Shown one piece after another: positions 1,767-61,869 of a stretch of DNA of 64,000 nucleotides. Below the pieces are notes generated by a model. The model saw only the letters and a program-made list of their open reading frames with translations. It was not told the DNA's origin and made no database searches. This DNA is from a bacterium (GTDB lineage Bacteria > Bacillota > Clostridia > Lachnospirales > Lachnospiraceae). Where the stretch lies: the NCBI GenBank assembly GCA_963658405.1, contig CAVKQI010000003.1:60-64059 (forward strand), given 5' to 3'. Every line of letters starts with the position of its first letter. Position 1 is the first letter of the stretch. Made by a program: the position numbers and the translations under genes.

Positions 1767-1903
1767 TACTTGCGCCGCTGCCTGTCGGCGTCAACGCGAA
1801 GGGAATTTCGCGCAGGCGAATTCTCCTCGAGCCCCCGAAGGATGACGCTTGCGTCATCCTTCGAGTGAGACAGAAAAGCTATCAGGCTTTTCTGTCTCAC
1901 TTG
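1767..1903 (-). repeat. Four-hairpin intergenic module (family 1), full copy
   Basis: It lies between the ATPase stop (1904) and the permease start (1742). Components are a degenerate hp1 at about 1772-1792, hp2 GGGAATTTCGCG/GGCGAATTCTCC at 1801-1826, hp3 CGAAGGATGAC/GTCATCCTTCG at 1836-1863, and hp4 AGTGAGACAGAAAAGC/GCTTTTCTGTCTCACT at 1864-1901. Confidence 0.8.
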
Positions 1904-2614
1904 TTACCAATCCAGCTGCGCTGCCGGGATCCTGCATTCATTAAAGTCATTGTGGCGCACCAGGCCGTCCCGGAGGCGGATGCAGTGGTCGGCCATCTGC
2001 CGGATTGCCTCATTGTGCGTCACCATGATCACGGTATTGCCGTACTGCCGGTTGACCTTTTCAATGAGCTCCAGAATTTCCTTACTGGTCTTATAATCCA
2101 GCGCGCCGGTGGGCTCATCGCAAAGGAGCAGATCCGGATTCTTTACAATGGCGCGGCCGATGGAAACTCTCTGCTGCTGTCCGCCGGAGAGCTGGTTCGG
2201 CAGCTTGTAGCGATGCTCCCACAGTCCCAGTGTCCGCAGCAGCTCGTCCACCTCCAGAGGATCCTCGGAGAGATAGGCGCCCACTTCGATATTTTCCTTT
2301 ACATTCAGATTGCCGATGAGATTGTACATCTGGAATACGTATCCTAAGTGTCGTCTGCGGTACAGGGTCAGCGTCTTCTCATCCATGCTTTCCAATAGAT
2401 CTCCGTTTATGGAGATCTGACCGCTGTCCGCTCCGTCAATGCCGCCGATAATATTTAAAAGGGTCGACTTTCCGGAGCCGGAAGGCCCTAAGAGGACGCA
2501 GAACTCTCCCTTCTTCACGTCAAAGGAAAGTCCCCGCAGCACCTCCTGTCTGGTCTCTCCCTCTCCAAAGCTTTTCTTTAAATCCCGAATCTGCAAAAAA
2601 TACTGTTCGCTCAT
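1904..2614 (-). CDS. ABC transporter ATP-binding protein (MacB/LolD-like)
   Basis: 236 aa with Walker [10 protein letters not shown], signature LSGGQQQR and Walker [13 protein letters not shown]. It sits upstream of the FtsX-type permease. Confidence 0.9.
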
Positions 2615-2709
2615 TCTCCCTCTCTTTCTGTATGATTGACTTCTGTTATTTTGTCAGCTGCATTTATGCTTATATCTATCATTGTTAGTTATAGCTAACT
2701 TTTTCCATA

Positions 2710-2737
2710 AAAATACCATATTCAGGATATTTGTCAA
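2710..2737 (-). promoter_or_regulatory. Candidate sigma-A promoter for the MacB-like pair
   Basis: Minus-sense TTGACA (2732-2737), 16-nt spacer, TGgTATTTT extended -10 (2710-2715), about 95 nt upstream of the ATG at 2614. Confidence 0.45.
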
Positions 2738-2902
2738 TCCATATACCGTAAACCGGCGTACTTAATTACTTAATCTGTACAGGTTCTGGTATCTGCCTGG
2801 CAGGCGGCCAGAGTGCAGAGCGCCTCTAGCCAGAAACATCGGGGATCTGCGAAACTAATTCGAGACGAGTGAGTGCAGCATAGATACTTATAATGCATCC
2901 AT

Positions 2903-4807
2903 TCAGGATGCCTGGTTCTCGTCGAACTGGCTGTTGTAGAGGTCGGCATAGAAGCCGTTCTTTTCCATCAGTTCCTCATGCTTGCCGCTCTCGATGACAT
3001 CGCCGTCCTTTAATACCAGGATCAGGTCCGCGTTCTTGATGGTAGAGAGTCTGTGGGCGATGACAAAGGATGTCCGATTTTCCATCAGCTTATCCATGGC
3101 ATCCTGGATCAGCAGCTCCGTTCTGGTATCCACGGAGGAAGTAGCCTCATCCAGGATCAGCATGGGTCTGTCCGCGATCATGGCTCTGGCGATGGTCAGC
3201 TGCTGCTTCTGGCCCTGGGACAGGGTCATCTGCTCATTGAGCATGGTGTCGTAGCCATCCGGCAGCGTGCCGATGAAATAATCCAGACCTGCAGCCTTGC
3301 AGGCTTCCTGCATCTGTTCCTCGGTGACGTTCGGTGTGCTGTAGATCAGATTCTCCCTGATGGTACCTTCAAAGAGCCAGGTATCCTGCAGCACCATACA
3401 GAACTGGGAGCGCACCGCCTCTCTTCTGATCTGATCGGTGGGAATGCCGTCGATACTGATCTGACCGCCCTGCACCTCAAAGAAGCGCATGAGCAGATTT
3501 ACCAGTGTCGTCTTGCCGGCGCCGGTGGGACCGACGATGGCAATCTTCTGGCCCGGCTTTGCCTGGGCACTGAAATCGTGGATGATGACCTTCTCCGGGT
3601 CATAGCCGAACCTTACATGATCAAAGGTCACCTCGCCCTTTACATCCGTAAGCGCCGCTGTCTTGTCCTTCTCTTCTGGCATCTCCTCAGCCTCCAGGAA
3701 TTCAAAGACACGCTCGCCTGCTGCGGCGGCCTGCTGCAGGGACTGGATGACCTCGGTCAGCTGGGTCAGAGGCTGGGTAAAGTAATTGATATACATAAGG
3801 AATGCCACGATGGCACCAAAGGTGATCTGGTGACTTAATACGAGGGATCCGCCTACCACGCAGACAGCCACATAGCCAAGACTGCCTACCAAACTCATCA
3901 GCGGCATCATCAGGCCGGAAAGGCACTGTGCCATAAAGCCGCTGTGACGAAGATCATTGTTGAGTTCATCAAACTTTTCCTGCGCTGCCCTGGTGCCGTT
4001 GAAGGCCTTGACGACGGTATGTCCGCTGAAGACTTCCTCGATATGTCCGTTGATCTCGCCGATGCATTTCTGCTGTCTGCTGAAATACTTCTGGCTTCTC
4101 ATCATAATGAGGAAGATGACCGCAAATCCCAGAATGGATGCGCCCACTGCCGCCAGAGTCATCAGACCGCTGGTCACGATCATCAGCACAAGGCTTCCCA
4201 CGAACATGATCAGTGAGGAGATCAGGGTCGCAATACTCTGGTTCATGGTGCCGCTGATGGTATCCACATCGTTGGTCACACGGGAAAGGGTGTCGCCGAT
4301 GGTCTTATCGTTATAGAAAGACATGGGAAGACGGTTGATCTTATGAGAGATATCATCCCTGAGTCTCTGGGAAAAACGGAGCGTGATCTCTGCCATGATC
4401 CAGCCCTGAGCCGCAGAGAGGATCGCACTGAGCACATATAACCCGATCAGAAAGAAGCCGATCCTGCTCACGCCGGCCAGGTCCATGGAGGCATCCGCCT
4501 TCATTCCTGCCGTGATCGTATTGGTCAAGGATGAGAGCAGTCCCGGGGAGACCAGGGAAATCACTGTGCCTGCTCCGGAAAAGATCACCGCAATCACCAG
4601 CAGCGGAATGGAATTTTTGCCGTAGAGAAAGATCTTCTTCCAGGTTCCCATCAGATCCTTGGGCTTGCCGGAATTTCCGCCTTCGGCCTCTCCTTCTCCC
4701 GGTCCTTTTACTTTTTTGCGTCTTGCTTCCTCGAAAGCCTTCCTTCTGGCTTCTCTGGCCGCCTCTCTGGCCTCTGCTCTGGCTTTTTTCTTATTTTCAT
4801 TTTCCAT
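2903..4807 (-). CDS. ABC exporter, fused permease/ATPase subunit (canonical NBD) of a heterodimeric pair
   Basis: 634 aa with six predicted TM segments followed by an NBD. Motifs are Walker A GPTGAGKTT, signature LSQGQKQQ and Walker B MLILDEATS with the catalytic Glu. The N-terminus carries a roughly 50-aa Lys/Glu/Ala-rich extension. The start overlaps the stop of the upstream subunit. Confidence 0.9.
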   Translation of the reverse strand: MENENKKKARAEAREAAREARRKAFEEARRKKVKGPGEGEAEGGNSGKPKDLMGTWKKIFLYGKNSIPLLVIAVIFSGAGTVISLVSPGLLSSLTNTITAGMKADASMDLAGVSRIGFFLIGLYVLSAILSAAQGWIMAEITLRFSQRLRDDISHKINRLPMSFYNDKTIGDTLSRVTNDVDTISGTMNQSIATLISSLIMFVGSLVLMIVTSGLMTLAAVGASILGFAVIFLIMMRSQKYFSRQQKCIGEINGHIEEVFSGHTVVKAFNGTRAAQEKFDELNNDLRHSGFMAQCLSGLMMPLMSLVGSLGYVAVCVVGGSLVLSHQITFGAIVAFLMYINYFTQPLTQLTEVIQSLQQAAAAGERVFEFLEAEEMPEEKDKTAALTDVKGEVTFDHVRFGYDPEKVIIHDFSAQAKPGQKIAIVGPTGAGKTTLVNLLMRFFEVQGGQISIDGIPTDQIRREAVRSQFCMVLQDTWLFEGTIRENLIYSTPNVTEEQMQEACKAAGLDYFIGTLPDGYDTMLNEQMTLSQGQKQQLTIARAMIADRPMLILDEATSSVDTRTELLIQDAMDKLMENRTSFVIAHRLSTIKNADLILVLKDGDVIESGKHEELMEKNGFYADLYNSQFDENQAS

Positions 4808-14593: not shown

Positions 14594-14674
14594 TACAATG
14601 TCCTCCTATGCCGCTGCATTGCAGCGGCAGCGCGAAGGGAATTTCGCGTAGGCGAATTCCCTGATGCGATCCTC
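14594..14674 (-). repeat. Family-1 module, hp2+hp1 only, filling the gltB-gltD spacer
   Basis: hp1 TGCCGCTGC-ATT-GCAGCGGCA at 14609-14629 and hp2 GGGAATTTCGC/GGCGAATTCCC at 14637-14661. In sense orientation hp1 is followed by TAGGAGGACATTGTA-ATG (gltD). Confidence 0.85.
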
Positions 14675-25447: not shown

Positions 25448-25459
25448 TCTAATCTCCAT

Positions 25460-25617
25460 TCCGTAGGCGTCCGCGCCGGAGGAATCGCAAACCGAATCAA
25501 AGATTCGCTTCAGCGAATCTTTGATTCGGTTTGCGCTCAGGGCTATTTGTGACGCCTACGACACAAATAGCTGTGTACCCAATACGATAGCGATCGTATT
25601 GGGTACACTTCTCTCCT
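25460..25617 (-). repeat. Cluster of long perfect hairpins between the HMA gene and the ATPase gene
   Basis: 23-bp perfect stem at 25487-25534. Outer arms are CGTAGGCGTC (25462-25471) and GACGCCTACG (25551-25560). Hairpin GCTATTTGTG/CACAAATAGC (25542-25571) has the outer right arm as its loop. A 16-bp perfect stem GTGTACCCAATACGAT/ATCGTATTGGGTACAC lies at 25573-25608. Confidence 0.85.
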
Positions 25618-25836
25618 TTACCGAAGAATCCTGCAGTCCGGCTCTACTTTGGCGCAGACCTTCACCACTTCGTCCATGATGGCATCAAACTTCTCATCCA
25701 CTGCATCCACGGTCATCTTCTGCATCAGAAAGTTTACCGACGCGTCATTGACACCGTCGATCTTCTTGATGGCATCCTCCATCTTTGCAGCGCATTCTGC
25801 GCAGTCCAGGTCCTCGAGCTTGAATTTCTTTTTCAT
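25618..25836 (-). CDS. Stand-alone heavy-metal-associated (HMA) domain protein
   Basis: 72 aa with the ferredoxin-like HMA pattern and metal motif LDCAECAAK (CxxC). Confidence 0.8.
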   Translation of the reverse strand: MKKKFKLEDLDCAECAAKMEDAIKKIDGVNDASVNFLMQKMTVDAVDEKFDAIMDEVVKVCAKVEPDCRILR

Positions 25837-26010
25837 ACTTACCTCTTTCTGCCGCTGCTTTGCAGCGGCTGCATGAGGAGAATTTCGCGAAGGCGAATTC
25901 TCCGATGTGATCCTCCATGGATGACGCTTCCGTCATCCATGGGTTTGCAGGAAATGCCATCGGGCATTTCCTGCAAACTTGCCTCCTTCTGCCGCTGCTT
26001 TGCAGTGGCC
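25837..26010 (-). repeat. Family-1 module, full copy flanked by two hp1+SD copies
   Basis: Plus-strand order: hp1 at 25851-25869, hp2 GGAGAATTTCGCG/GGCGAATTCTCC at 25877-25903, hp3 CCATGGATGAC/GTCATCCATGG at 25915-25942, hp4 TTTGCAGGAAATGCC/GGCATTTCCTGCAAA at 25944-25977, and a second hp1 at 25991-26009 abutting the cadC-like stop. Each hp1 is followed in sense orientation by AGAAAGAGG or AGAAGGAGG. Confidence 0.85.
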
Positions 26011-26496: not shown

Positions 26497-27450
26497 CTAT
26501 TCCCTGATCAGCTTAAATACCGCGGAATGGGAATAGGTCACGCTTTCCGTATGGGCGAAAAGCACCACACCGGAAACCGGCGCTGTGATCTGGGTAAGCA
26601 AAGACGCATCCAGGGTGCTGTCGATCTGTGCCAGGATCTGGCCCTGCTGCACATACTCGCCGGGCTTTACATAGCCATGGAAGAATCCGGCTCTGGGTGC
26701 TCTGACCGTGATAAGATCCTCATCCTCTACGATCTTTGACTGTGCCGGCCTGTAGTCGCTGTATGCTGCTTCCTTTTCCTCGTCCAGGGCGGTGAGCAGA
26801 CCCGTCTGTTTCATAAAGTGCAAAATGGCAGAGACCGCCTCCTTGCTGCTCTTTCGATCCACCGTCTCCGTATTGGTGGTATACAGGGAAAAGGCATCCG
26901 TCTCCCAGATCTGCCAGTTGTAATTCAAGGTCGTGGTATCAAAGGGTCTGGGTTCTCTGACCATCACGTAAGGAAGACCGAATGCCCCGGCCAGCTCCTT
27001 ATTCTCAAAACCTGTCTTCATCACCCGGATATGGGGCATAAAGGAACCCTTCATGTAAAAAGAGGCGAACTGGATCCCCATGCGGTACTCTTTGATGCCC
27101 TCAAAGATTCCTGCGGCGATCCGCTGCGTGGTCTCCCCGGCGTCATAGCCGGGAAACATACGGTTGATGTCTGTATTGTCGATAGACCAGAACCGCTTCT
27201 TGATATTGAGCGAGGCGGGATTAGCACAGGGAATCACCAGGATCTCCTTGTCCTTTGCAAGTTTGCCCTCTGCCTCCAGTTCCTTAAGGCGCCCTGCCAG
27301 ATGCGCCGCCGTATACAACTGCTGATATTCATTGCCCCGCAGACTCCCCAGGACACAGAGTGCCTTTTCGCCGCTGCCGAAGCTAAGACCTTCTACCTTG
27401 AATTCATCCCGATATAAAGGATGAAAGGAATATATGATTTCTTTTTTCAC
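26497..27450 (-). CDS. AstE/AspA-family (succinylglutamate desuccinylase/aspartoacylase-like) protein lacking the zinc-ligand histidines
   Basis: The start was moved to GTG 27450 (VKKEIIYSF), after AGAAAGGGA. It is a paralogue of 27582..28502. GSLRGNEYQQ replaces GVHGDELEG, and IQFASFY replaces DIHASNIF. Confidence 0.65.
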   Translation of the reverse strand: MKKEIIYSFHPLYRDEFKVEGLSFGSGEKALCVLGSLRGNEYQQLYTAAHLAGRLKELEAEGKLAKDKEILVIPCANPASLNIKKRFWSIDNTDINRMFPGYDAGETTQRIAAGIFEGIKEYRMGIQFASFYMKGSFMPHIRVMKTGFENKELAGAFGLPYVMVREPRPFDTTTLNYNWQIWETDAFSLYTTNTETVDRKSSKEAVSAILHFMKQTGLLTALDEEKEAAYSDYRPAQSKIVEDEDLITVRAPRAGFFHGYVKPGEYVQQGQILAQIDSTLDASLLTQITAPVSGVVLFAHTESVTYSHSAVFKLIRE

Positions 27451-27581
27451 ACTTTCCCTTTCTATGCCGCTGCAGCACAGCGGCAGCATGCAGAGAATTT
27501 CGCGTAAGTGCATTCTCCGATGTAAGCCCTGCGGATGACGCCTACGGCATCCATGGGGATTACATCCTGCAGGTAAGCTCC
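27451..27581 (-). repeat. Family-1 module, partly degenerate
   Basis: hp1 TGCCGCTG-CAGCA-CAGCGGCA at 27465-27485, an hp2 remnant (GAGAAT/ATTCTC arms) at 27493-27517, and an hp3 remnant ..GGATGACG..CATCC.. at 27526-27557. Confidence 0.7.
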
Positions 27582-28502
27582 TTATTGCTTCAGAATCCTT
27601 CCCATCAAAGAGCCTACCTGCACCACCGGATATTCCCGGGTGGTAAACAGAAGACCCTCATGCTCTGCCTTTACAGTGCAGAGCTTTTCTCCGGAAAGAG
27701 GATCCACCAACACGCCCAGCACGGTGCCGGGCTGTACTCTGCTGCCCACTTCTTTTTCTTTGATGAAAATACCGGAAGCCGGTGCATTCAAAAAATCCAC
27801 CGCATCCGGCCGGTTGGAGACCAGGGGCTTTCGCACCGGGCAGTCCTCTCCCTGCCAGATGCCCATTTCCTTCATGGTATGCATAAGGCCGTCCACCAGC
27901 TGTATACCGTATTCTCTGGTAATGCGCATGCCTACACCCATCTCCACCACCAGAGTAGGCGTGCCCCGGCTGTTCAGGCTGTAGGCCAGCGTGGATTCCA
28001 GCACGGTGGAATTCTGGTGCACCCAGATAAAGTCCACATTCATCTGGGCCGCATAGGGCAGAAGATTCTTCTCATGGAGCTCATTGATGCGGATCTGCGG
28101 CATCTCTGTCAGGAAAATATTGCTGGCATGGATGTCCACCACCAGGTCTGCCCCCTGCAGATCCTCCAGGATCTCATCGGCGATATGCTCGTACATATCT
28201 CCTTCCTCGGAGCCGGGAAAGATCCGGTTCATATCGAGGTCAAAGGCCGGCAGTCCCCGCATAATGGTATCGATTCCCATGGGATTCATGGCTGGATAGA
28301 TATCCACGATGCCGGATAGAAGCTCCGGTGCCTCCTGCAGTCGTCTGGCCAGCTCATAGGCCACAAACTGGCCTTCCAGTTCATCCCCGTGCACGCCGGT
28401 GACGACACAGATCCGCCTGCCGCCTTCCTTCCCCAGCCGGTTCTTTCGAATACACAAATGCTCACAGACCGGCAATTCTACGCTTGTAATGGTTTTTATC
28501 AT
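27582..28502 (-). CDS. AstE/AspA-family zinc deacylase/carboxypeptidase-like protein
   Basis: 306 aa with the HxxE motif GVHGDELEG and a second His in VVDIHASN. Confidence 0.75.
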   Translation of the reverse strand: MIKTITSVELPVCEHLCIRKNRLGKEGGRRICVVTGVHGDELEGQFVAYELARRLQEAPELLSGIVDIYPAMNPMGIDTIMRGLPAFDLDMNRIFPGSEEGDMYEHIADEILEDLQGADLVVDIHASNIFLTEMPQIRINELHEKNLLPYAAQMNVDFIWVHQNSTVLESTLAYSLNSRGTPTLVVEMGVGMRITREYGIQLVDGLMHTMKEMGIWQGEDCPVRKPLVSNRPDAVDFLNAPASGIFIKEKEVGSRVQPGTVLGVLVDPLSGEKLCTVKAEHEGLLFTTREYPVVQVGSLMGRILKQ

Positions 28503-33016: not shown

Positions 33017-33044
33017 AGTTTCTCCCTTGTATCCATTCATGCCT

Positions 33045-33138
33045 GAAAGAAAAGCCATCCGGCTTTTCCTTCAAACCTGCCCCCTTGCCGCAGTATGCTG
33101 CGGCAGCACAAGGAGAATTTCGCACAAGCGAATCCTCC
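33045..33138 (-). repeat. Family-1 module (hp2, hp1 and an extra hairpin) after argS
   Basis: Extra hairpin GAAAGAAAAGCC/GGCTTTTCCTTC at 33045-33072, hp1 TGCCGCAG-TATG-CTGCGGCA at 33086-33105, and hp2 GGAGAATTTCGC/GCGAATCCTCC at 33112-33138. Confidence 0.75.
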
Positions 33139-33155
33139 GATATGATCACGAAAGT

Positions 33156-47550: not shown

Positions 47551-49089
47551 TTACTGCGGCTTCGCGCTGTCAATTGCCTTCTTATAAGGCGCCATCATGC
47601 CTTCGTTCATGGCATTGTTCTGCTTTTCCATGAGCTTCGTATGCCGCATCATAAAGCCTACCAACTGCATCATCAGCATTCGTCCCCGCTGTTTCTGCGG
47701 GAAGTCGTAGATGCCGTGCTTTTTATAGAATTCGTGGTCAGCCTTCATAAAGCCCCGCATGACCCAGATCAGATCCCGGAATATCTTCATGCCGCCCACG
47801 CCGTAGAAATTTCTGGGCTGCAGGTATTGATGCTCCAGCGCATAGCGGAGCCTGGAGAGCATAACCTGATCAGAGGAGAAATCCGTACCCACCCCAGCCA
47901 GGAAATTGTGTCCCACATCGCAGCGGGCTTCTATGACGGTGCGCAGGTTGGGCTCTCTCTCATAATCGCCGCAGACGATATAGCCAAAGGGCATGCCTTC
48001 CGTCACGGTGCGGTGACCATTGCAAAACTGGCGGTCGTCATACATCTTGAAGGTCGGCCCCATGGAATGGTCCTGAATGGTAAAGGCGTAGACGATGGCC
48101 GCATTGGTCTGGATCTGCTCCCGCAGGAAGGCATCGAATCCGTCTGTATAGACGCACTTCCCGGAAGCCGCGCAGTGAAAGCAGCCAAGGCAGCCGCCCT
48201 GAAAGGGATACTCTGCCAGGTTGATGAGTCTGGTGGGAAGGGGACAGGCCTGTCGGAAGGCCTCAATACGGGCCCTGAGGGCATTATCATCTTTTCTTAA
48301 ATCTGCAACGATAGCGATTGATTTGTTCGAACCATCAGCTGAATTACCACTGGCACGCGTTTTGTTTCCGGCACGCGTTTTGTTTCCGTCCCTGCTGCTT
48401 TCTATGGAAGCCTCTTTCTTATTGCTTTCTTTACTGTCTTCATTATTATATTGGTTATTGTCCTTATTGTGATCCTCGTCGCTATATTGGCTGCTGACTC
48501 CGCATTCATCTTTGCTGCTGCATGCATGATTATCTTCTTTGATATCTCCGCTGATAAGTTTCTCAGAAGATGCAGCCGGCTGCGCAGCAGTCAGGGGTGC
48601 TTTCTCACTGATCCCGTTTTCCACGCACCAGAGCACATAACGGAAGAAAGAGACCGCATCCTCCTGGCCTTTCTTTGTGGTGAGATCATCCATATCTGCA
48701 GACAGGCCGTGGATCACTCGCATGCCCAGATCAAAGCAGTTGTCTTCCACATAGCGATGGGCTGTCACATCATAAAAATGTTTGGAGGTGGTAATCTGGG
48801 TGACGAATTTCCCGGAGAGATCGGCGCCGCTTTCCTTTAAAAGCCGGATAAAGCGGTGCAGCTGACTGGGTGCTAAGAATGTATAGACCGGATAGGAAAA
48901 GATGATCAGATCTGCCTCGTCCATGGCCTTTAAAGCAGGCGTTAGATCCTTTTCCAGAGAGCGGATCTGAGCCGCCGCCAATACATAGGTAAAACTGTGC
49001 TGCGGAAAACATTTCTCCAGATAGCAGCTGGTCATGGATGTGATGGAATATATTCCTCTGGGGGAACCGTTCAGAATGCAGATTTTCAT
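47551..49089 (-). CDS. Two-domain flavodoxin-fold / NAD(P)H-dependent oxidoreductase-like protein with a low-complexity linker
   Basis: 512 aa. The N-terminus MKICILNGSPRG.. is of the FMN-reductase type. The second half carries GGCLGCFHCAASGKC. The linker is rich in N/D/K/S. Confidence 0.6.
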   Translation of the reverse strand: MKICILNGSPRGIYSITSMTSCYLEKCFPQHSFTYVLAAAQIRSLEKDLTPALKAMDEADLIIFSYPVYTFLAPSQLHRFIRLLKESGADLSGKFVTQITTSKHFYDVTAHRYVEDNCFDLGMRVIHGLSADMDDLTTKKGQEDAVSFFRYVLWCVENGISEKAPLTAAQPAASSEKLISGDIKEDNHACSSKDECGVSSQYSDEDHNKDNNQYNNEDSKESNKKEASIESSRDGNKTRAGNKTRASGNSADGSNKSIAIVADLRKDDNALRARIEAFRQACPLPTRLINLAEYPFQGGCLGCFHCAASGKCVYTDGFDAFLREQIQTNAAIVYAFTIQDHSMGPTFKMYDDRQFCNGHRTVTEGMPFGYIVCGDYEREPNLRTVIEARCDVGHNFLAGVGTDFSSDQVMLSRLRYALEHQYLQPRNFYGVGGMKIFRDLIWVMRGFMKADHEFYKKHGIYDFPQKQRGRMLMMQLVGFMMRHTKLMEKQNNAMNEGMMAPYKKAIDSAKPQ

Positions 49090-49790
49090 TTTATCCTTTC
49101 TGTGCCGCTGCAGAGCAGCGGCAGCGCGAAGGGAATTTCGCGAAGGCGAATTCCCTGATGCGATCCCTGAGGATGAGGCATAGCCTCATACTCGCAATGC
49201 CTTAAAATGACATCAGTCATTTTAAGGCATTTGTTTCCTTTCTGTGCCGCTGCAGCGCAGCGGCACCCTGAGGAGAATTTCGCGCAGGCGAATTCTCCGA
49301 TAGGATCTCAGAGGATGAGGCAAAGCCTCATCCTCGTAATGACATAAAATGACATCAGTCATTTTATGTCATTTTTTCTCCTTGCCGCTGCAGAGCAGCG
49401 GCAGCGCGAAGGGAATTTCGCGAAGGCGAATTCCCTGATGCGATCCCTGAGGATGAGGCATAGCCTCATACTCGCAATGCCTTAAAATGACATCAGTCAT
49501 TTTAAGGCATTTGTTTCCTTTCTGTGCCGCTGCAGCGCAGCGGCACCCTGAGGAGAATTTCGCGCAGGCGAATTCTCCGATAGGATCTCAGAGGATGAGG
49601 CAAAGCCTCATCCTCGTAATGACATAAAATGACATCAGTCATTTTATGTCATTTTTTCTCCTTGCCGCTGCAGAGCAGCGGCAGCGCGAAGGGAATTTCG
49701 CGAAGGCGAATTCCCTGATGCGATCCCTGAGGATGAGGCATCGCCTCATCCTCGTAATGCCTTAAAATGACATCGGTCATTTTAAGACGT
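49090..49790 (-). repeat. Tandem array of five family-1 four-hairpin units (2.5 x 280 bp)
   Basis: hp1 starts at 49103, 49245, 49383, 49525 and 49663. Segment 49103-49382 is identical to 49383-49662. In unit 1, hp1 is at 49103-49123, hp2 at 49131-49155, hp3 at 49169-49193 and hp4 at 49197-49230. Confidence 0.9.
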
Positions 49791-50739
49791 TTATTGCCTT
49801 TCGCACGGCTGCCTTATATTCCGGCATGCGCTGTGCCTTGCGGATCTCTTTGGCCAGGGAGGCGCCGTCCGGGCGTCCCTGAAGCATGAAATTCCACAGA
49901 TCCTTCATCTTAAAAAGGACATTCCTGTCATCGCCGATCACTTCCTGATATCGGCTCACCAGTGCATCGTGGAATTCCCGGAAGCGGTCATCCATAACCG
50001 GTACGGACACATTCTCTGCTTTTTCTACCTTCTCTGCCAAGGCGGGATCCCGCAAAAGTCCCCGTCCGATCATGACGGTCTCTGTCTGCGGAAAAGAAGC
50101 GGCAAACTCCTGCACCGCCTGCAGATCAAAGAGGTCCCCATTGTAAACCACCGGATTTTTGCTTTCCTGCAGGATCTCCCGGAAGACATCCAGGTGCACG
50201 GCACCTTTGTAGAATTCCTTCTGCACTCTGGGATGCACGATCAGTTCCTTTACCGGATACTGATTATAGATCTGCAATAGTCTCTCCCACTCCTGCGGAT
50301 CATTTCTGCCGATCCTGGTCTTGATGGAAACGGCAAACGCTCCCGCCGCCACAGAAGGATCTTTATAGATCTCATCTAAGAACCGGTCCAGTTCCTCCGG
50401 AAAGCCGAGGAATCCTGCGCCCTTCTTTTTGGCAGCCACGGTGCCGGAGGGACAGCCCAGATTTAGATTGATCTCCGGATAGCCCATGCCGGCCAGGCGT
50501 TTTGCTGTCTCCAGAAAGCCGCCGGCGTGATTGGTGAGAATCTGGGGCACCACCGGCATGCCCTCATTATTTTCCGGCAGCACGTCCCGCATTTCCTTTG
50601 TGCTCAGCGGCTGGTCAGGACGGAGGGATACAAAAGGAGTAAAGTACTTTTCCACACCCTTATAATACCGGTGATGAAGCTGTCTGTAGGTATAGGTAGT
50701 GATCCCCTCCATAGGCGCAAAATAGATATGCATAGCCAT
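49777..50739 (-). CDS. tRNA-dihydrouridine synthase family protein
   Basis: The start was moved to MAMHIYFAPMEGIT (AAAGGA upstream). It has a TIM-barrel FMN motif ..EINLNLGCPSG.. The stop codon lies inside the last hp4 hairpin of the array. Confidence 0.8.
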   Translation of the reverse strand: MAMHIYFAPMEGITTYTYRQLHHRYYKGVEKYFTPFVSLRPDQPLSTKEMRDVLPENNEGMPVVPQILTNHAGGFLETAKRLAGMGYPEINLNLGCPSGTVAAKKKGAGFLGFPEELDRFLDEIYKDPSVAAGAFAVSIKTRIGRNDPQEWERLLQIYNQYPVKELIVHPRVQKEFYKGAVHLDVFREILQESKNPVVYNGDLFDLQAVQEFAASFPQTETVMIGRGLLRDPALAEKVEKAENVSVPVMDDRFREFHDALVSRYQEVIGDDRNVLFKMKDLWNFMLQGRPDGASLAKEIRKAQRMPEYKAAVRKAINVLK

Positions 50740-51731: not shown

Positions 51732-51744
51732 GTTTCTCTCCATT

Positions 51745-51921
51745 CTGCCGCCATCGCTGCGGCAAATCTGATTTCATTCTTACCTTACTATGCCGCTGCA
51801 AGGCAGCGGCAGCACGAGGAGAATTTCGCGCAGGCGAATTCTCCGATGTGATCCCGAATTGATGACGTATGCGGCATCAATTCGCGTTTGAAAGAAATGC
51901 CATCGGGCATTTCTTTCAAAC
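51745..51921 (-). repeat. Family-1 module, full copy plus an extra hp1-like hairpin
   Basis: Extra hp1-like hairpin at 51746-51764, hp1 at 51791-51811, hp2 at 51818-51844, hp3 CGAATTGATG/CATCAATTCG at 51855-51884, and hp4 GTTTGAAAGAAATGCC/GGCATTTCTTTCAAAC at 51886-51921, abutting the ribF stop. Confidence 0.85.
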
Positions 51922-52851
51922 TTAACTTCTGTGATAGGTTCTGCCTGCTGCCACATCTGCCTCCATGGTTCTCTGCAGTTCTTCCATGCCGGAAAATTTT
52001 CTCTCCGGACGGCGGTAGGTCAGCAGCTTCGTGACCGCCTCTTTCCCATAGAGATCTCCGTCAAAATCATAGAGGTAGGTCTCTACCGTGATGGGAGGCT
52101 GTCCCGGATGCTCCTGTCTGGAAATCGTGGGCTTGCGGCCTATGTTCGTCATGCCTGTGTATTCTTTTCCCTCGATCTCCACTCTGGAATAATATACGCC
52201 GAAGGGAGGCAGTAGCTTACTCTCTGCCGGTGTCTGATTGATGGTGGGAATCCCCATCGTCCGACCGAGTTCGTTGCCGTGACAGATCACGCCTTCCACC
52301 CGGTAAGGCTCTCCCAGCATGGCAGATGCTTTCTCCATCTGTCCTTTTTCCACGTATAGGCGGATCAGGGTAGAACTCACTTCCTGCCCGTCTATCTTTA
52401 CCTTTTCCACCTTTTCGGAGGAAAAGCCGTATTCCTTCTCAAGGCTGCGAAGAAGGGCGAAATCCCCTGCGCCCTTGTCGCCGAAGGAAAGATCACTGCC
52501 CGCTGCCACGAATCCGGCATGCATCTGTCCTGCCATGATCTCGCGGACGAAGGCTGTCGGCTCCGTGGCCGCGGTCTGTCTCGTCAGCGGAAATTCCACC
52601 AGATAATCGATGCCGATCTCAGAAAGCACATGCCGCTTTTCCTCCGGTGTCATCAGTTCCTTTACATCCCCTTTTCCGAAAAAAACGGCCGGAGAGGGAG
52701 AAAAGGTAAAGACCGCACTGCGCAGGCCTTCTCTTTTCTGAATGGTCTCCAGGATTTTTCGGTGCCCCAGATGTACGCCGTCAAATTTGCCGATGGCCAT
52801 GGCGGTGGGCTCTTCTATATGAAAGTCTGTTGTACCGGATATTATTACCAT
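51922..52851 (-). CDS. ribF: Bifunctional riboflavin kinase / FAD synthetase
   Basis: The start was moved to MVIISGTT. It has ..GKFDGVHLGHRKIL.. and a C-terminal riboflavin kinase domain. Confidence 0.9.
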   Translation of the reverse strand: MVIISGTTDFHIEEPTAMAIGKFDGVHLGHRKILETIQKREGLRSAVFTFSPSPAVFFGKGDVKELMTPEEKRHVLSEIGIDYLVEFPLTRQTAATEPTAFVREIMAGQMHAGFVAAGSDLSFGDKGAGDFALLRSLEKEYGFSSEKVEKVKIDGQEVSSTLIRLYVEKGQMEKASAMLGEPYRVEGVICHGNELGRTMGIPTINQTPAESKLLPPFGVYYSRVEIEGKEYTGMTNIGRKPTISRQEHPGQPPITVETYLYDFDGDLYGKEAVTKLLTYRRPERKFSGMEELQRTMEADVAAGRTYHRS

Positions 52852-53862: not shown

Positions 53863-53881
53863 GCCGCTGCCTTGCTGCGGC
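53863..53881 (-). repeat. Isolated family-1 hp1 (imperfect) upstream of truB
   Basis: GCCGCTGC-CTT-GCTGCGGC. In sense orientation it is followed by ACAGAAAGGTT..ATG. Confidence 0.6.
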
Positions 53882-54849: not shown

Positions 54850-54882
54850 ACTCCTCCAATCCGCACCGATAAAGTGCATAAA

Positions 54883-54917: not shown

Positions 54918-54952
54918 CTGCTTGCTCAGAGTCATTTAAGTTAAGACGCCGC

Positions 54953-55395: not shown

Positions 55396-55399
<4 letters not shown>
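54953..55399 (-). CDS. rbfA: Ribosome-binding factor A
   Basis: ..[22 protein letters not shown].., with an extended acidic C-terminal tail. Confidence 0.9.
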
Positions 55400-58615
<3,216 letters not shown>

Positions 58616-58638
<23 letters not shown>

Positions 58639-58957
58639 TGCAACCTCTTTCTTCCTCGCTGCCAAGCAGCCTGATCATACTCTCCGCAAACCCTTTGTCT
58701 GTCACCGCCACGCAGGATCGGTACTCCTTGCCGATGGCGCCTCCCAGTGTCTCCTTTGTCCCGTGATGCCGCAGCGGCACCTCATAAAAGGAACACATAT
58801 TTCCAAAGCTCTTCTCTGTATTCTTCTGCGCATCCTCTGCCAGGATCACCAGGTAAGCCCGAAAGCCCTTGACTGCCTTTTCTGCAGCGAAGTTTCCGCT
58901 CTCTATCTTACCAGCCTTGGCGGCCAGTCCCAGAAGTGATAAAACTCTATCCTTCAC
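58616..58957 (-). CDS. ylxQ: L7Ae/L30e-family RNA-binding protein (YlxQ-like)
   Basis: The start was moved to GTG 58957 ([17 protein letters not shown]), after AAGGAGG. It overlaps both ylxR and infB. Confidence 0.75.
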
Positions 58958-59267
58958 AGTCAGCCTCCTTCCCGGCCTGCTCAATCTGCGGAGAGGCATG
59001 GGGAGATGCCCCCGCCAGGCTCTTCTCCAATGACCGATAGATCTCCGACGGCACACTCATGCCATAGGCCCGATTCAGTGCCTTTTTCTTTTCTGCCAGC
59101 TGCAGACAGGCTGTGCTTCTGCACAGATAAGCGCCCCGTCCGTTGGCCCGTCCTGTCAGATCCAGAGAGATCTCTCCCTCCGGCGAGCGGATGATCCGCA
59201 CCAGGCTCTTTTTTTCCTTCATCTCTCCGCAGCCAATGCATTGGCGCATCGGAATCTTTTTCGGCAT
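58947..59267 (-). CDS. ylxR: YlxR-family (DUF448) RNA-binding protein
   Basis: MPKKIPMRQCIGCGEMKEKKSLVRI.. ..GRGAYLC.. Confidence 0.85.
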   Translation of the reverse strand: MPKKIPMRQCIGCGEMKEKKSLVRIIRSPEGEISLDLTGRANGRGAYLCRSTACLQLAEKKKALNRAYGMSVPSEIYRSLEKSLAGASPHASPQIEQAGKEADCEG

Positions 59268-59288
59268 GCTGCTTCTGTTACCTCCATC

Positions 59289-59308
59289 TGCCGCAGTTTA
59301 CTGCGGCA
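59289..59308 (-). repeat. hp1-type hairpin upstream of ylxR
   Basis: TGCCGCAG-TTTA-CTGCGGCA. In sense orientation it is followed by GATGGAGGTAACAGAAGCAGC-ATG. Confidence 0.65.
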
Positions 59309-59337
59309 ACACTTAATCTGTATAGAAATCCGGAAGA

Positions 59338-60567
59338 TTATTCCTGCTCTTCCTCTGCGGTCTCTTCGACATCTTCTGCAGCAGATGCATCATCCTCTGC
59401 AAAATCTTCCTCTGTCTCCGATGCCTCGGAAGTCTCCTCGTCATATGCCTCCTCATCGTCAGCATATTCCTCGTCCTCTTCGTACTCGTCGTCCAGATAA
59501 TCCTCATAGCGGAAACCGGGCGCATCCTTTGCCTGGGTCTCGCTCTTGATGTCGATCTTGTAGCCGGTCAGTCTGGCTGCCAGACGTGCATTCTGTCCTT
59601 CGCGTCCGATGGCCAGGGACAGCTGATAATCCGGCACCACGACCTTGGCCGTCTTTTCTTCCGGATCAGCAAAGACTGCCACGATCTTTGCCGGGGAAAG
59701 GGCGTTCTGAATAAAGTTACCAGGGTTCTCATCCCAGTTCACGATATCGATCTTCTCGCCGTTTAATTCTTCCACGATGTTATTGACACGGGCACCGTTC
59801 ATACCTACGCATGCACCCACCGGATCCACATTGGGATCATTGCTGCAGACAGCGATCTTGGTGCGGCTGCCGGCCTCTCTGGCGATGCTCATGATCTCTA
59901 CCGTGCCGTCATGGATCTCGGTCACTTCCTGCTCAAAGAGTCTCTTTACCAGCTCCGGATGCGTACGGCTTACCATGATGCGGGGTCCCTTGGGAGTCTC
60001 TCTGACCTCCAGGATATAGACCTTGACTCTCTCTGTGGGACGCAGCACCTCACCGGGCACCTGCTCCTTCTCATTGAGGACGGCATCTGCCTTGCCCAGG
60101 TTGACAGTGATGCTCTTGGGCATGACGCGCTGCACGATACCGGTGACGATATCCTTCTGCTTTTCGTAGTACTCGGAATAAACGGCTCTGCGGTCCTCCT
60201 CGCGGATCTTCTGGAGCAGGACATTCTTGGCGATCTGGGTGGCGATGCGGCCGAAGGACTGGCTGTTGATCTTTACCTGCACCACATCTCCCACTGCTGC
60301 CGTGCGTCTGATCTCCTTGGCATCCTGCAGGGAAATCTCCAGCAGATCATCCTCTACATCCTCCGGCGTCTCTACGACAGTCTTCTCTGCATAGCAGCCG
60401 AAATCACAGGTGTCACGGTCGATTTCCACTCTTATATTATCTGCCTTGCCGTAGTTATTCTTGCAGGCTGTCAGCAGTGCATTCTCAATTGCCTCAAAAA
60501 GGGTATCCTTGCTGATATTTTTCTCTTTTTCCAGCGCATCCAAAGCTTCCTTGAGATCTTTATTCAT
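59338..60567 (-). CDS. nusA: Transcription termination/antitermination factor NusA
   Basis: The start was moved to MNKDLKEALD. It has the NusA N domain, S1 and two KH domains, and an acidic C-terminal extension. Confidence 0.95.
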   Translation of the reverse strand: MNKDLKEALDALEKEKNISKDTLFEAIENALLTACKNNYGKADNIRVEIDRDTCDFGCYAEKTVVETPEDVEDDLLEISLQDAKEIRRTAAVGDVVQVKINSQSFGRIATQIAKNVLLQKIREEDRRAVYSEYYEKQKDIVTGIVQRVMPKSITVNLGKADAVLNEKEQVPGEVLRPTERVKVYILEVRETPKGPRIMVSRTHPELVKRLFEQEVTEIHDGTVEIMSIAREAGSRTKIAVCSNDPNVDPVGACVGMNGARVNNIVEELNGEKIDIVNWDENPGNFIQNALSPAKIVAVFADPEEKTAKVVVPDYQLSLAIGREGQNARLAARLTGYKIDIKSETQAKDAPGFRYEDYLDDEYEEDEEYADDEEAYDEETSEASETEEDFAEDDASAAEDVEETAEEEQE

Positions 60568-60793
60568 CTTTGCTCCCATGCTCCTTTCCTTGGTGCCGGC
60601 CTGTCGCCGGGCATGTTCCTGTCCTGTATGTCTGTGCTTCTCTGTATTCTCGGTGATTTTCTGTATTTCTATGGTTCTCTGTATCTTCTATAATTCTCTT
60701 TAAATCTTTATTTCTGTGATTCTCTGCGTTTTTGTATCTGCCTGACACCTGTCCGGTTCCTATGAACCGGCTGTCCACAGATAAGATCCACAC

Positions 60794-61297
60794 TTAAAAA
60801 CCCAATGCCAGACGCAGCATGGCGATATTCTTGCGTCCAAAAACCTGTCTGGTACCGTCCGCAAGGACGATGGTGATCTGAAAAGCATCAAAGCTCTCCA
60901 GCTCCCCGGCAAATTCCTTGGGTCCCTTGGGTTCCAGAGGCTTGTAGAGCTTTAACTCCACCTGCTCTCCCAGGCTGTACTGCAGATGTCTGTCCTTGGT
61001 CAGTGCACGACCAAGCCCGGGACTGGATACTTCCAATACATAGGCCTCCGGGATAATATCCTCCTGATCCAGTACGTCGGAATAGGCTCTGCTGACTTCT
61101 ACGCAGTCATCGATGGTGACGCCGCCTTCCTTGTCGATATAGGCGCGAAGGTAATAATCGCTCCCTTCCTTCACATAATCCACATCGTAGATCTGCACGC
61201 CGTGCGCCTCTGCGATCGGGATCAGCAATTCCTCTGCCTTACGGGCATAACCGCCTTTTCCGGAGGATGTGCCTTTCTTATTACCCTGTTCTCCCAT
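60794..61297 (-). CDS. rimP: Ribosome maturation factor RimP
   Basis: The start was moved to MGEQGNKK (AGAGGA upstream). Pattern: ..LEVSSPGLGRALTKDRH.. Confidence 0.85.
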   Translation of the reverse strand: MGEQGNKKGTSSGKGGYARKAEELLIPIAEAHGVQIYDVDYVKEGSDYYLRAYIDKEGGVTIDDCVEVSRAYSDVLDQEDIIPEAYVLEVSSPGLGRALTKDRHLQYSLGEQVELKLYKPLEPKGPKEFAGELESFDAFQITIVLADGTRQVFGRKNIAMLRLALGF

Positions 61298-61357
61298 GTA
61301 ATTTCCTCTTAATTCTATGGCATTTCTGCTGTATTCGTCATCTCTATTTTCGGGCAT

Positions 61358-61384
61358 AGAAAAAGTGGACTTCGTCAGTCCACT
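61358..61384 (-). terminator. Intrinsic terminator in the rimP-nusA leader
   Basis: Minus-sense AGTGGACT-GACGA-AGTCCACT followed by TTTTT. It lies about 25-50 nt after the predicted TSS. Confidence 0.65.
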
Positions 61385-61410
61385 TCATCAATCCCTACGT
61401 CTACCATGTC

Positions 61411-61439
61411 ATACTAGCACTGTTTTTGCGGAAAATCAA
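61411..61439 (-). promoter_or_regulatory. Candidate promoter of the rimP-nusA-infB operon
   Basis: Minus-sense TTGATT (61434-61439), 17 nt, TGcTAGTAT (61411-61416). Confidence 0.55.
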
Positions 61440-61598
61440 GCATTTTCGGGGCTGCGGCGGCGTCAAAGTGCCGCAGATCAATCGCATAAACCATTTCTTG
61501 CAAACTTTTTACCTGCTCTTTACATTCCTGTGATGGTGATTTTCGCCGTCTGCGGTATTCTGTATATCAGCTGCACATAAAAGTTGCATCTCATAACT

Positions 61599-61708
61599 CA
61601 GCCAGACGTGCGAGCGGGTGGCGGATGATGTCCGGCGCACGAGCACTGAGCTGCAAGGCGTCCCCAAGCGGACATCGCCGACAGGACCCGCCCCTCGGCT
61701 GGCGTACG
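61599..61708. repeat. Nested-palindrome element (family 2), short copy
   Basis: It shares ..GAGCGGGTGG(C)CGGATGATGTCCGGCGCA.. and ..GGCGTCCCCAAGCGGACATCGCCGACAGGACCCGC.CC.TCGG.. with 31844-32019. The core is only about 20 bp and the left outer arm is degenerate. Confidence 0.7.
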
Positions 61709-61869
61709 GGTAGCAACCAAAAGCAACGGATTAGTTGTCAGCACAAATAAATATGCATAGCTGTAGTGCATTTAAATGCAAATAATTGTATAATTTGAAC
61801 AATACAACATTTTCATGCTGCGCAGCAAGGCAGCCACGTCTCCTCTGCCGCAGCGGAAAGGAATTTCAC

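Follow-up and report, generated by a model that had tools for sequence, protein, structure and literature searches.

A four-hairpin repeat of about 140 nt that carries its own ribosome-binding site fills gene junctions in a gut Clostridia genome and appears to be an undescribed family within a known class, the bacterial intergenic repeats. The family is interspersed, modular and structured, and its unit reads hp4, hp3, a conserved linker (GAUCRYAUC), hp2, hp1 and a purine-rich Shine-Dalgarno (SD) tail. In the window, the whole 64,000-nt stretch of DNA analyzed, the four-hairpin module is found at 8 minus-strand gene junctions (a count that includes the copy at 25449-25612 and the array at 49087-49802) and solo hp1+SD pieces are found at 2 further junctions; in total, 10 of the 43 same-strand junctions are occupied, with the spacer filled from stop to start. 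The element is missing from spacers with the look of a promoter or terminator region. With slightly better than even confidence, we favor a modular, start-docked repeat that spreads by recombination or template switching, is nearly harmless and has a probable role at the RNA level.

The preliminary description of this DNA, made from the letters alone, had reported hp1 hairpins ending just before the SD of several genes; its observation is partly confirmed as real and its interpretation is partly supported. All of the hp1-SD-start strings that it quoted occur where it placed them, and its gene labels (gltD-like, HMA, AstE-like, FMN_red, Dabb and YlxR) were upheld. The exact hp1 pattern has 10 matches in the window, all intergenic, against 0 in 100 shuffles, and the asymmetric hp2 core has 11, every one on the minus strand. 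A covariance model built from 26 copies gives 12 strong matches in the window, on the minus strand only; its plus-strand matches (≤29 bits) are mere echoes of the palindromic stems and no match in the window lies within a gene. The same families (D2, D4, D6 and D7) emerge from an independent repeat finder, and TRF reports the array at 49087-49802 with a period of 142 (5.1 copies) or 280 (2.5 copies). Two proposed examples were lost: the plus-strand copy at 61870 lacks a model match and folds no better than shuffles (z = -0.41), and the GC-rich variant upstream of amt (23140-23170) reaches only 11 bits (E = 0.11).

All copies in the window, and nearly all of its genes, lie on the minus strand. 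Upstream of the HMA gene (25837-26010) the hp4-hp3-hp2 block is flanked by hp1+SD on either side, as had been described. The left (upstream) hp1 (25991..26009), whose AAAG loop is identical to that of the right copy at the site, is followed by the SD GAAGGAGG. Hp4 (25943..25978), a 16-bp stem with a CGAU loop in which 14 of 16 pairs covary, has TTG as its first letters, where a start codon would stand after the left SD, and hp3 (25915..25942; CCATGGATGACG-GAAG-CGTCATCCATGG) covaries in 10 of 10 pairs. Conservation within the family is highest in the hp2 core (25877..25903; GGAGAATTCGC-CTTC-GCGAAATTCTCC, which has a bulged A), where 9 of 11 inner pairs are invariant and a covarying outer 3-bp helix (CAC...ATG at this site) lies beyond an internal loop. 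The right hp1 (25851..25869; GCCGCTGC-AAA-GCAGCGGC) is followed at 25834..25850 by the purine-rich SD tail AGAAAGAGGTAAGT and the ATG of the gene (25836-25834).

Full modules are also present at 1758..1904 (R1 100.2 bits), flanked by the stop codon of gene 1904-2614 and the GTG at 1742, with hp4 at 1864-1901, hp3 at 1836-1863, hp2 at 1799-1828, a degenerate hp1 at 1772-1797 and the SD AGAAAGG farther downstream, and at 51776..51925 (R1 155 bits), immediately 3' of the ribF stop, with hp4 at 51886-51921, hp3 at 51855-51884, hp2 at 51818-51844, hp1 at 51791-51811, SD TAAGG and an ATG at 51776. The adjoining 51732..51775 holds a short hp1-like hairpin (TGCCGC-AGCGATG-GCGGCA, 51746-51764) and SD GGAGAG before the Dabb ATG (51743/51731), and this hairpin is common to L091. 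A 5'-truncated unit (14594..14674; 75 bits) occupies the entire gltB|gltD spacer with linker GATCGCATC, hp2 (14632-14667), hp1 (14609-14629), SD GGAGG and the ATG at 14593. The module of the AstE-like gene (27450..27582; R1 63.6 bits; GTG 27450) has a degenerate hp4, hp3 at about 27533-27552, hp2 with 3 mismatches at 27495-27515, hp1 at 27465-27485 and SD GAAAGGG, and a permuted fragment (33017..33155) runs hp2 (33112-33138), hp1 (33086-33105), SD and hp4 (33041-33076), after which come the gene's own SD and ATG (33016). The tandem array of 5 units (49087..49802), in which A and B types alternate in a 280-nt double unit, extends from within the Dus stop (TGA 49779-49777, inside hp4) to the FMN_red ATG at 49089, and its internal units begin with ATG mini-ORFs (ATG ACA TAA or ATG CCT TAA). 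A diverged four-hairpin module (25449..25612; R1 44.3 bits), which the earlier reading had overlooked, precedes a P-type ATPase ATG (25459) with hp4' at 25573-25608, hp3' at 25542-25571, a long hp2' at 25486-25535 and SD GGAG; a relative of this variant is present in L090. The two solo copies are an hp1 with an A.A mismatch (53863..53881) followed by ACAGAAAGG, with the truB ATG (53839) 24 nt on, and TGCCGCAG-TAAA-CTGCGGCA (59289..59308) followed by GATGGAGG, with the ylxR ATG (59267) 22 nt on. At these two genes hp1 is present as claimed, and its docking on a functional SD is loose because 13-14 nt separate the ATG from the SD-like purine run.

The family is also found in at least 15 other Clostridia assemblies, labelled Lachnospiraceae for the most part and including the cultured Lachnoclostridium sp. 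Marseille-P6806, on at least 87 stretches, and copies within one genome are barely more similar (75.7%) than copies of different genomes (72.6%). Among the matches listed from these assemblies, a long sense ORF stands at the 3' end of 95 of 110 copies; 76 of the 95 have their start within the final positions of the model (offset -2 to +1) and 85 use ATG, whereas the antisense control yields 40 ORFs without a positional peak. Hp1 lies 13-14 nt from the start codon in 41 of 41 terminal canonical copies, with a fixed spacing of hp1 - 4 nt - SD - 5 nt - AUG, and for the hp1-bearing subfamily the distance from hp2 to the ATG is 41-46 nt in the majority of terminal copies. The SD belongs to each tandem unit, and since the 3' end of the element adjoins the start codon, the downstream gene relies on the element's own SD. 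Most canonical copies also open with TTG, ATG or GTG, 4-5 nt past an upstream SD-like run; together with the SD and start at the 3' end, this makes each end of the unit resemble a translation-initiation region. The element occurs in sense orientation only, in spacers of co-oriented genes or in leaders. The rule that a copy follows its gene holds in other genomes, and on contig CAVBJS010000003 (L047, L049) both orientations are present, each copy matching its gene. The 13-14-nt precision of docking may need a targeted mechanism, beyond selection alone.

Compensatory changes are present in all four stems. Of 46 pairs in the model, 30 have double changes; paired cells amount to 95.5% versus 80.4% after shuffling (0 of 500 shuffles reach that value), double-change cells number 164 against 42 expected, and slid controls are at most 45.6% paired. 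The sense-strand fold has a z of -8.7, and the SD and AUG are predicted to be unpaired in the centroid structure. Sequence is conserved across genera in the hp2 core and the hp4 apex (AUGNC-YGAU-GNCAU), and the hp2 core is nearly invariant among genera whose orthologous proteins are about 30-60% identical, which points to a trans-acting factor or horizontal spread and suggests that passive recombination is insufficient. Hp1 is not among the conserved parts: it is missing in L088 at the orthologous DHH|truB and ribF|Dabb sites, and sister subfamilies have other hairpins in its place. G.U exceeds A.C modestly (125 versus 97), the balance is reversed in hp2, and the comparison is confounded by strand-specific deamination and the model-fitted alignment. 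Quasipalindrome template-switch correction at the DNA level could in principle also produce compensated stems, with no need for selection at the RNA level. The second of two readings offered earlier, that of a conserved 5' stem-loop with a role in processing or protection, is plausible.

The preliminary description had also proposed looking for empty sites in orthologous spacers, and in three close relatives such spacers range from empty through hp1-only to the full module, or have another number of units. The DHH|truB junction is empty in L088, has a full module in L090 and is hp1-only in the window. The ribF|Dabb module, full in the window, shows a 139-nt indel (insertion or deletion) in the conspecific L091, whose "empty" allele retains the first 11 nt of hp4, and is absent in L088. 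Dus|FMN_red has 5, 2 or 1 units (5 in the window, 2 in L091). Units are gained, lost and amplified both within and between species; since occupancy varies between relatives, the element is no fixed leader. The hp1+SD piece is usually present twice, flanking hp4-hp3-hp2, and the flanking copies of one site agree in site-specific variants (left/right score 15.0 within a site versus 9.6 between sites; permutation p < 1/5000), which fits the earlier idea of a duplicated target or unit boundary. A solo hp1+SD stands where a relative carries a full unit. The other earlier reading, of an element that is inserted at a hairpin and SD or carries its own, is supported by the SD in every tandem unit, the docking and the variable occupancy.

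We infer both the mechanism of spread and a function in RNA processing, protection or RBS insulation from these patterns. The repeat would be transcribed together with its flanking genes, and its TIR-like hp1+SD ends would be where recombination or template switching spreads and resizes it, with no classical cut-and-paste transposase involved; solo hp1 copies would be products of unit loss, much like solo LTRs. It would persist because it is nearly harmless, supplying a working RBS and having no U-tract in the sense strand. In the terminator scan, the reversed orientation (hp4 followed by the SD complement) looks terminator-like and the sense strand does not, which would account for the strict orientation. 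The hairpins probably insulate the RBS and serve as exonuclease barriers on the RNA, with hp1, 5' of the SD, expected to stop RNase J 5'-3' decay and hp4 and hp3 positioned as barriers on the 3' side of the upstream cistron. A putative protein probably binds hp2.

A possible though unlikely alternative is that a dedicated enzyme moves the repeat as a non-autonomous mobile element, which homes to translation-initiation regions and duplicates its hp1+SD target. The enzyme could be an HUH/Y1 protein of the IS200/IS605-RAYT type recognizing hairpins such as hp2 with its bulged A in single-stranded DNA, or a structure-specific recombinase acting at hp1. The near-invariant hp2, consensus hp4/hp3 shared by distant genomes (L088 versus L087), nucleotide-exact position relative to the ATG, direct repeats particular to each site, intact 3' ends of many 5'-truncated copies and presence/absence differences among congeners are consistent with such movement. 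However, terminal inverted repeats are lacking, the flanking repeats have no fixed length (about 10 to about 75 nt), copies of one genome are about 25% diverged with no near-identical burst, no transposase candidate was identified and the element is absent on phage contigs and plasmids. Copies that track genes on both strands of one contig are also not what a purely replication-strand-dependent single-stranded DNA mechanism would predict.

It is doubtful that the element is first of all a selected cis-regulatory RNA, mobile only secondarily, in which a global RNA-binding protein or endoribonuclease, with hp2 and/or the hp4 apex as its operator, processes polycistronic mRNAs at junctions or tunes translation of the downstream cistron. 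Compensatory changes in old, diverged paralogous copies, conserved asymmetric loops (YGAU, UAAA and CUNC), the bulged A in most hp2 copies, the fixed geometry around the SD and the occupancy shared at some orthologous sites by the congeners CAVBJS and CAVBBL argue for this reading. Against it, the downstream genes have no functional relation, close relatives freely have empty sites even at housekeeping junctions, one site ranges from 1 to 5 copies, decayed remnants exist (site A), the Rfam search returned no matching family and no candidate protein is known.

The mycobacterial MIRU is, by analogy, the closest counterpart, from a different phylum (Actinomycetota) and with no sequence relationship claimed. 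According to PMC12548453, which cites Supply et al. (1997), MIRUs are short gene-sense repeats between operon genes, form tandem arrays of variable number and reportedly insert at start codons, preserving downstream expression through an internal ORF coupled at -4; they are 40-100 bp and not defined by four covarying hairpins, unlike the present element, which has an SD in place of a conserved ORF. We give very little credence to a similar scheme here, in which a small ORF in each unit is translated and its stop overlaps the next start so that ribosomes are passed on by translational coupling. Most units do open with TTG, ATG or GTG at an SD-appropriate spacing, and certain units are open end to end (the L002 frame closes with ATGA at the gene start). 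However, across 26 units stops show no consistent position in any of the three frames, the unit (139-142 nt) is no multiple of 3, internal units in the window carry 2-codon mini-ORFs, the element itself supplies the SD and the frame analysis found no conserved peptide; after this analysis a coupled ORF is unlikely.

Next to no belief is merited by the view that upstream genes end in these hairpins, hp1 included, as ordinary intrinsic terminators or 3'-end structures that lie near starts by chance; the preliminary description had named the terminator reading as one that would count against its own, and it is refuted as a sufficient explanation. GC-rich hairpins do immediately follow stop codons, and hairpins 3' of a cistron can stabilize mRNA as in REP elements. 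Yet no U-tract comes after a module hairpin in the sense strand and the scan flags none of these hairpins, the spacing to the downstream ATG stays constant but that to the upstream stop ranges from -43 to about 200 nt, and the same hairpins follow promoters lacking an upstream co-oriented gene (L077).

Among known repeats, the element is not a classical MITE (no terminal inverted repeats), a REP (one shared orientation, 3' end fixed to the next start) or an attC site. The pneumococcal BOX (boxA-boxB(n)-boxC) is a modular Firmicute intergenic repeat with a variable number of internal modules, strongly folded transcripts co-transcribed with neighbors and no transposase of its own. The present element shares its modularity, variable module number, strong folding and lack of a transposase but differs in module sequences and host lineage; BOX is not known to be locked to start codons or to supply an RBS, and the present element does both. 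Firmicute 5' mRNA stabilizers, 5'-proximal stem-loops with a STAB-SD, block 5'-3' decay by RNase J. The stable hairpin just 5' of an SD-like sequence recalls this protective arrangement of Bacillus, although the stabilizers are single gene-specific leaders and the present element is a dispersed repeat with putative 5'-end processing at hp1 (for RNase J biology see PMC5419742). REP/BIME elements with RAYT are likewise abundant imperfect palindromes in transcribed intergenic regions, mosaic and modular, with a conserved bulged hairpin as a possible protein or HUH-enzyme site; they alternate in orientation within BIMEs, lie mostly 3' of genes (PMC2817692) and carry a GTAG-type 5' tetranucleotide absent here, whereas the hairpins of the present element all share one orientation and its 3' end is tied to the next start. 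ERIC/IRU and Correia (NEMIS) MITEs resemble it in length (100-200 nt), stable RNA structure and co-transcription (the last presumed here); ERIC affects flanking mRNA stability according to orientation and Correia elements are processed by RNase III (PMC2229807). With their terminal inverted repeats and TA target duplications, these MITEs fold end to end as one long stem (PMC2229807), whereas the present element, without such repeats, has four independent hairpins and carries an SD.

The exact pattern of hp1, the hairpin next to the Shine-Dalgarno (SD) sequence (TGCCGCWG-N3-8-CWGCGGCA), occurs ten times in the window against none expected from shuffles, and the asymmetric core of hp2 (GAATTCGCC-NN-CGCGAAATTC) is matched 11 times, on the minus strand every time. 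Read on that strand, the copies noticed in the preliminary description have a uniform order (hp4, hp3, a linker GATCRYATC, hp2, hp1, a purine-rich SD and the start codon) and make up a module of about 140 nt. The same repeat families came up independently with Tandem Repeats Finder and with a generic repeat-finding program. R1, a covariance model built from 26 full copies, has 12 strong matches in the window, all intergenic and all on the minus strand. At 49087-49802 (minus strand) five units stand head to tail as an array (period 142, or 280 when read as an A/B double unit), and a diverged module overlooked by the preliminary description is matched by R1 at 25449-25612 (minus strand). Family elements occupy 10 of the 43 junctions between co-oriented genes, and at all ten the element takes up the whole spacer, reaching from the stop codon of the upstream gene to the start of the downstream one; none is found in window spacers that read as promoter or terminator regions. 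The hairpin modules of the preliminary description are real, and its gene names are correct. Two of its proposed members fall away: the plus-strand copy at 61870 is without an R1 match and folds no better than shuffles (z = -0.41), and the variant ahead of amt scores 11 bits with R1 and is not a family member.

The family is also found in other genomes. A scan for the hp2 core, with one genome per species, returned at least 87 stretches; among the matches listed, at least about 75 fall in at least 15 Clostridia assemblies, mostly gut or rumen metagenome-assembled genomes (MAGs) labelled Lachnospiraceae and one from a cultured strain (Lachnoclostridium sp. Marseille-P6806), and the remainder are single chance matches within genes of unrelated phyla. 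R1 matched these loci 150 times, 110 of them with a score of at least 36 bits. Downstream of 95 of the 110 lies a long ORF reading in the same direction as the element; its start is between -2 and +1 relative to the model end in 76 of the 95, and it is an ATG in 85; the mirror-image control gave 40 ORFs and no positional peak. The 15 exceptions are mostly internal array units or copies before short ORFs (44 codons in locus L047). The distance to the start codon is 41-46 nt from hp2, and from hp1 it is 13-14 nt in 41 of 41 terminal canonical copies. The preliminary description held that orientation follows the mRNA, which the window alone cannot establish because the real copies are all, and the genes nearly all, on the minus strand. 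Contig CAVBJS010000003 (loci L047 and L049) carries copies in both orientations, each following its own gene, so the rule is right even though the plus-strand copy offered in its favor is not a member. Sister subfamilies retain hp2 and the hp4 apex (AUGNC-YGAU-GNCAU) and have hp1 swapped for other short hairpins; the family core is hp2 and not hp1.

The structure of the module was assessed with RNAalifold on a MAFFT alignment built blind to structure. Four helices with 46 pairs were recovered, and 30 of the 46 show compensatory double changes. A standard pair is formed in 95.5% of alignment cells, compared with 80.4% after column shuffling (none of 500 shuffles was as high), cells changed on both sides number 164 compared with 42 in shuffles, and sliding the 3' partner by 1-3 columns leaves at most 45.6% of cells paired. 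In hp4 and hp3 the sequence is free to vary while pairing is kept. The inner stem of hp2, with its bulged A, is almost invariant, and the outer 3-bp helix around the internal loop covaries (CGU/ACG, CAC/GUG and CGC/GCG). The sense RNA folds far beyond shuffles (z = -8.7), leaving the SD and AUG unpaired in the centroid structure. Since the antisense strand folds as well (z = -11.0), folding energy cannot name the strand. G.U pairs outnumber A.C mismatches in hp4, hp3 and hp1 together (89 vs 50) and not in hp2 (36 vs 47), an excess that is weak evidence and no proof of structure at the RNA level because mutation (deamination) bias and alignment or model fitting push the same way.

The ends of the unit resemble a translation start. 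Most canonical copies open with TTG, ATG or GTG at a distance of 4-5 nt from a preceding SD-like run, exactly at the expected start-codon position, and the unit ends 5 nt beyond the SD. A second hp1 plus SD precedes the leftmost full unit at 17 of 28 sites, and the left and right copies have site-specific variants in common (score 15.0 within a site vs 9.6 between sites; permutation p < 1/5000). The remark in the preliminary description that hp1 and SD stand on both sides of the block at 25837-26010 is therefore general. Many copies are truncated on the 5' side; the 3' end is nearly always intact. Copies are 75.7% identical within a genome and 72.6% between genomes, nearly the same divergence; they are old, grouped around a shared consensus and not derived from a recent burst. 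The likeness between two module-associated genes (1712-1755 and 27420-27463) does not stop at the SD and includes the initial codons (GTG AAA AAA GAA A...), which the start of hp4 (TTG AAA GAA A) resembles. The element may overlap the downstream gene by a few codons; alternatively, the likeness may reflect the usual lysine-rich codon usage of N termini.

Orthologues of window genes at the hp2-pattern loci (at least 87) were too few and too distant (28-56% amino acid identity) for a comparison of sites. Relatives were identified by their TruB homologues: a conspecific locus, L091 (98% amino acid and about 97.8% nucleotide identity), and two congeners, L088 (87% amino acid) and L090 (86% amino acid), the next relatives being at about 60%. 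At the DHH/truB junction (upstream gene first), the window and L091 have hp1 only, L088 has an empty 12-nt spacer and L090 has a full module with an expanded hp4. At ribF/Dabb, the full module of the window corresponds in L091 to a one-unit (139-nt) indel flanked by GAAAGAAAT/GAATGAAAT, in L088 to an overlap of stop and start, and in L090 to other sequence ending in an hp1-like hairpin and SD. The truB/ribF junction is empty in the window and L091 and holds a degenerate module in L088, the comparison covering these three as L090 has a run of N there. At Dus/FMN_red, the window has five units, L091 two, L088 one and L090 a diverged variant. In L090 the local SD region TGCGGAAGGGGGA(A)CA at rbfA/DHH is present twice, once on either side of a variant module; L088 has it once and lacks the module. 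The congeners CAVBJS and CAVBBL (81-92% nucleotide identity) keep elements at shared sites, differing by whole or partial units. The element is thus gained and lost, forming a variable-number array that is present or absent at orthologous junctions; the empty spacers that the preliminary description had proposed to seek exist in L088 at DHH/truB and ribF/Dabb. The enlarged hp4 before truB in L090 (5470-5600) contains an internal microsatellite-like repeat (GATAGCGTAAATGCTT x3), and in this assembly (GCA_963651585) the gene caller extended TruB across the element, so that it is 368 aa long, 48 residues more than the proper 320. At the site of the window's five-unit array, L088 (9150-9850) has three tandem antisense genes for hydrophobic peptides of about 33 aa (ATGATCACAAC...GGTATCGCCTATGTCTAC...), each with its own SD, and then a single module before the FMN_red gene.

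The element is a structured, SD-carrying repeat docked to start codons; the family is real, and its geometry and abundance are striking. On the most likely account the module would be co-transcribed with its flanking genes, hp4 and hp3 lying 3' of the upstream cistron, and would spread and change size by recombination or template switching between its hp1-plus-SD ends, which are similar to translation initiation regions (TIRs); hp1 copies that stand alone would remain from the loss of a unit. The module would be tolerated because it supplies a working ribosome-binding site and is no terminator when in sense orientation. The hairpins probably insulate the ribosome-binding site and block exonucleases, with hp1, 5' of the SD, acting against RNase J, and hp2 is the probable site of a putative protein. 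Of the observations, the invariance of hp2 across genera is explained least well by recombination or template switching. Two less probable accounts are its main competitors: a dedicated transposase that recognises the hairpins and homes to initiation regions, and a network of RNA operators whose role is regulatory in the first place. A further, rather unlikely reading is that of a self-propagating portable translation-initiation cassette that homes to start codons by TIR mimicry at both ends, the invariant hp2 and the hp4 apex being operators of a putative dedicated protein (an RNA-binding regulator or endoribonuclease, or a hairpin-specific ssDNA recombinase). If this were true, a quarter of operon junctions, in several genera of Clostridia, would belong to one post-transcriptional network.

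The nearest analogue is the mycobacterial MIRU, which is likewise a variable-number tandem repeat placed in gene sense between operon genes (the orthologous module array having 5, 2 or 1 units) and is said to insert at start codons (PMC12548453). MIRU preserves expression via a coupled ORF (-4 overlap) and not via an SD. A MIRU-type ORF or other coding unit is rejected, as stop positions are inconsistent in every frame, the length of the unit is not divisible by 3 and frame analysis found no conserved peptide or ORF in the module. BOX, REP/BIME, ERIC and Correia elements are of the same general kind (PMC2229807, PMC2817692) but are without the start-codon docking. The preliminary description had itself named ordinary terminators as the reading that would undo its own; no module hairpin in 44000-62000 is flagged with a U-tract on the minus (sense) strand, which excludes an intrinsic terminator. 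Five terminator-like flags fall on the antisense strand, where hp4 runs into the SD complement (a T-rich run). A reversed copy within an operon would be polar, which would be a simple reason for the strict orientation. A classical MITE (ERIC, Correia, RUP) does not fit: the two ends of the unit (AAGTTTGAAAG... and ...AGAAAGGAAAAA) lack complementarity, terminal inverted repeats are absent, the consensus folds into four hairpins independent of one another and no fixed short (often TA) target duplication occurs, the flanking direct repeats being SD, hp1 plus SD or hp2-hp1-SD (about 10 to about 75 nt, the length varying by site). Nor does REP/BIME, since orientation does not alternate; strong R1 matches at a locus all point one way, and opposite-strand matches are weak palindromic echoes only. 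An integron attC cassette is rejected because the genes on either side are housekeeping genes in a syntenic order (infB-rbfA-nrnA-truB-ribF) shared by four relatives and because the unit begins with GTTTGAA or AAATGAC, neither of which matches the core GTTRRRY, and a CRISPR array because the entire 140-nt unit repeats head to tail without unique spacers. With Rfam 15, only a tRNA in the window reaches the gathering threshold and a permissive E-value adds no family, the best sub-threshold match on the array being Pseudomonadales-1 (30 bits vs a threshold of 68). The hp2 pattern has no matches in viral contigs, the consensus unit has none among PLSDB plasmids, a literature search with the hp2 sequence turned up nothing but unrelated primers, and searches by concept did not find the family described.

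If the anatomy holds genome-wide, the problem of insertion into operons is solved by a carried ribosome-binding site and an end exactly at the start codon, a solution that differs from the ORF coupling of MIRU. The family offers a testable system for the effect of structured RNA directly 5' of the SD on initiation and decay in Clostridia, for target choice by intergenic repeats and for a protein reading hp2, and the cultured carrier makes experiments possible. Unit-number variation could serve VNTR-style strain typing of gut Lachnospiraceae, and the module is a natural candidate for a part insulating ribosome-binding sites in synthetic biology of anaerobes. The repeats mislead gene callers, as with TruB. 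Contig ends cut many copies (L003, L013, L023, L038, L054, L055, L057, L066, L076 and L078), so the repeats appear to break MAG assemblies; they probably fragment short-read MAG assemblies of carrier species.

Several other repeats lie in the window. A tandem repeat of another family (40294-40662; 123 nt x3, 98-100% identity) forms a long hairpin on the minus-sense strand (AGTCCGGATCCTAAATYCGG...CCGGATTTAGGATTCGGACT), takes up most of the spacer that separates an FGAR-AT-type gene (40673-44503) from the gene with its start at 40256, and stops about 35 nt before the SD of the latter. A GC-rich element of about 150 nt, without an Rfam match at gathering score, has two copies (about 31860-32030 and about 61560-61730, minus sense), both in long promoter-type intergenic regions, that share a 49-nt core at 92% identity (GGGTCCTGTCGGCGATGTCCGCTTGGGGACGCC). 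A small gene without a Pfam match (1239-1742) contains a 113-nt in-frame tandem duplication (1223-1448, 87% identical) within its coding region. The infB coding region (IF2 N-terminal part) contains a 30/60-nt tandem repeat (57342-57713) encoding a G/Q/N/R-rich low-complexity stretch, and IF2 varies in length from 1077 to 1106 aa in L088, L090 and L091. Close upstream of a solitary tRNA gene (minus strand, 54.6 bits) and its promoter-like site there is a 37-nt direct repeat pair (AAGCAATTTTTTTATAGCGGAAAAGATGCCGGAAAAG; 44964-45070 and 44861-44932, 89% identical). The rbfA/DHH spacer contains a hairpin (ACCGGTATC...GATACCGGTT) distinct from the module and conserved in all four relatives (window 54850-54952; L088 3950-4040; L090 4290-4350; L091 4340-4400); its behaviour is that of a fixed leader or attenuator, in contrast to the modules.
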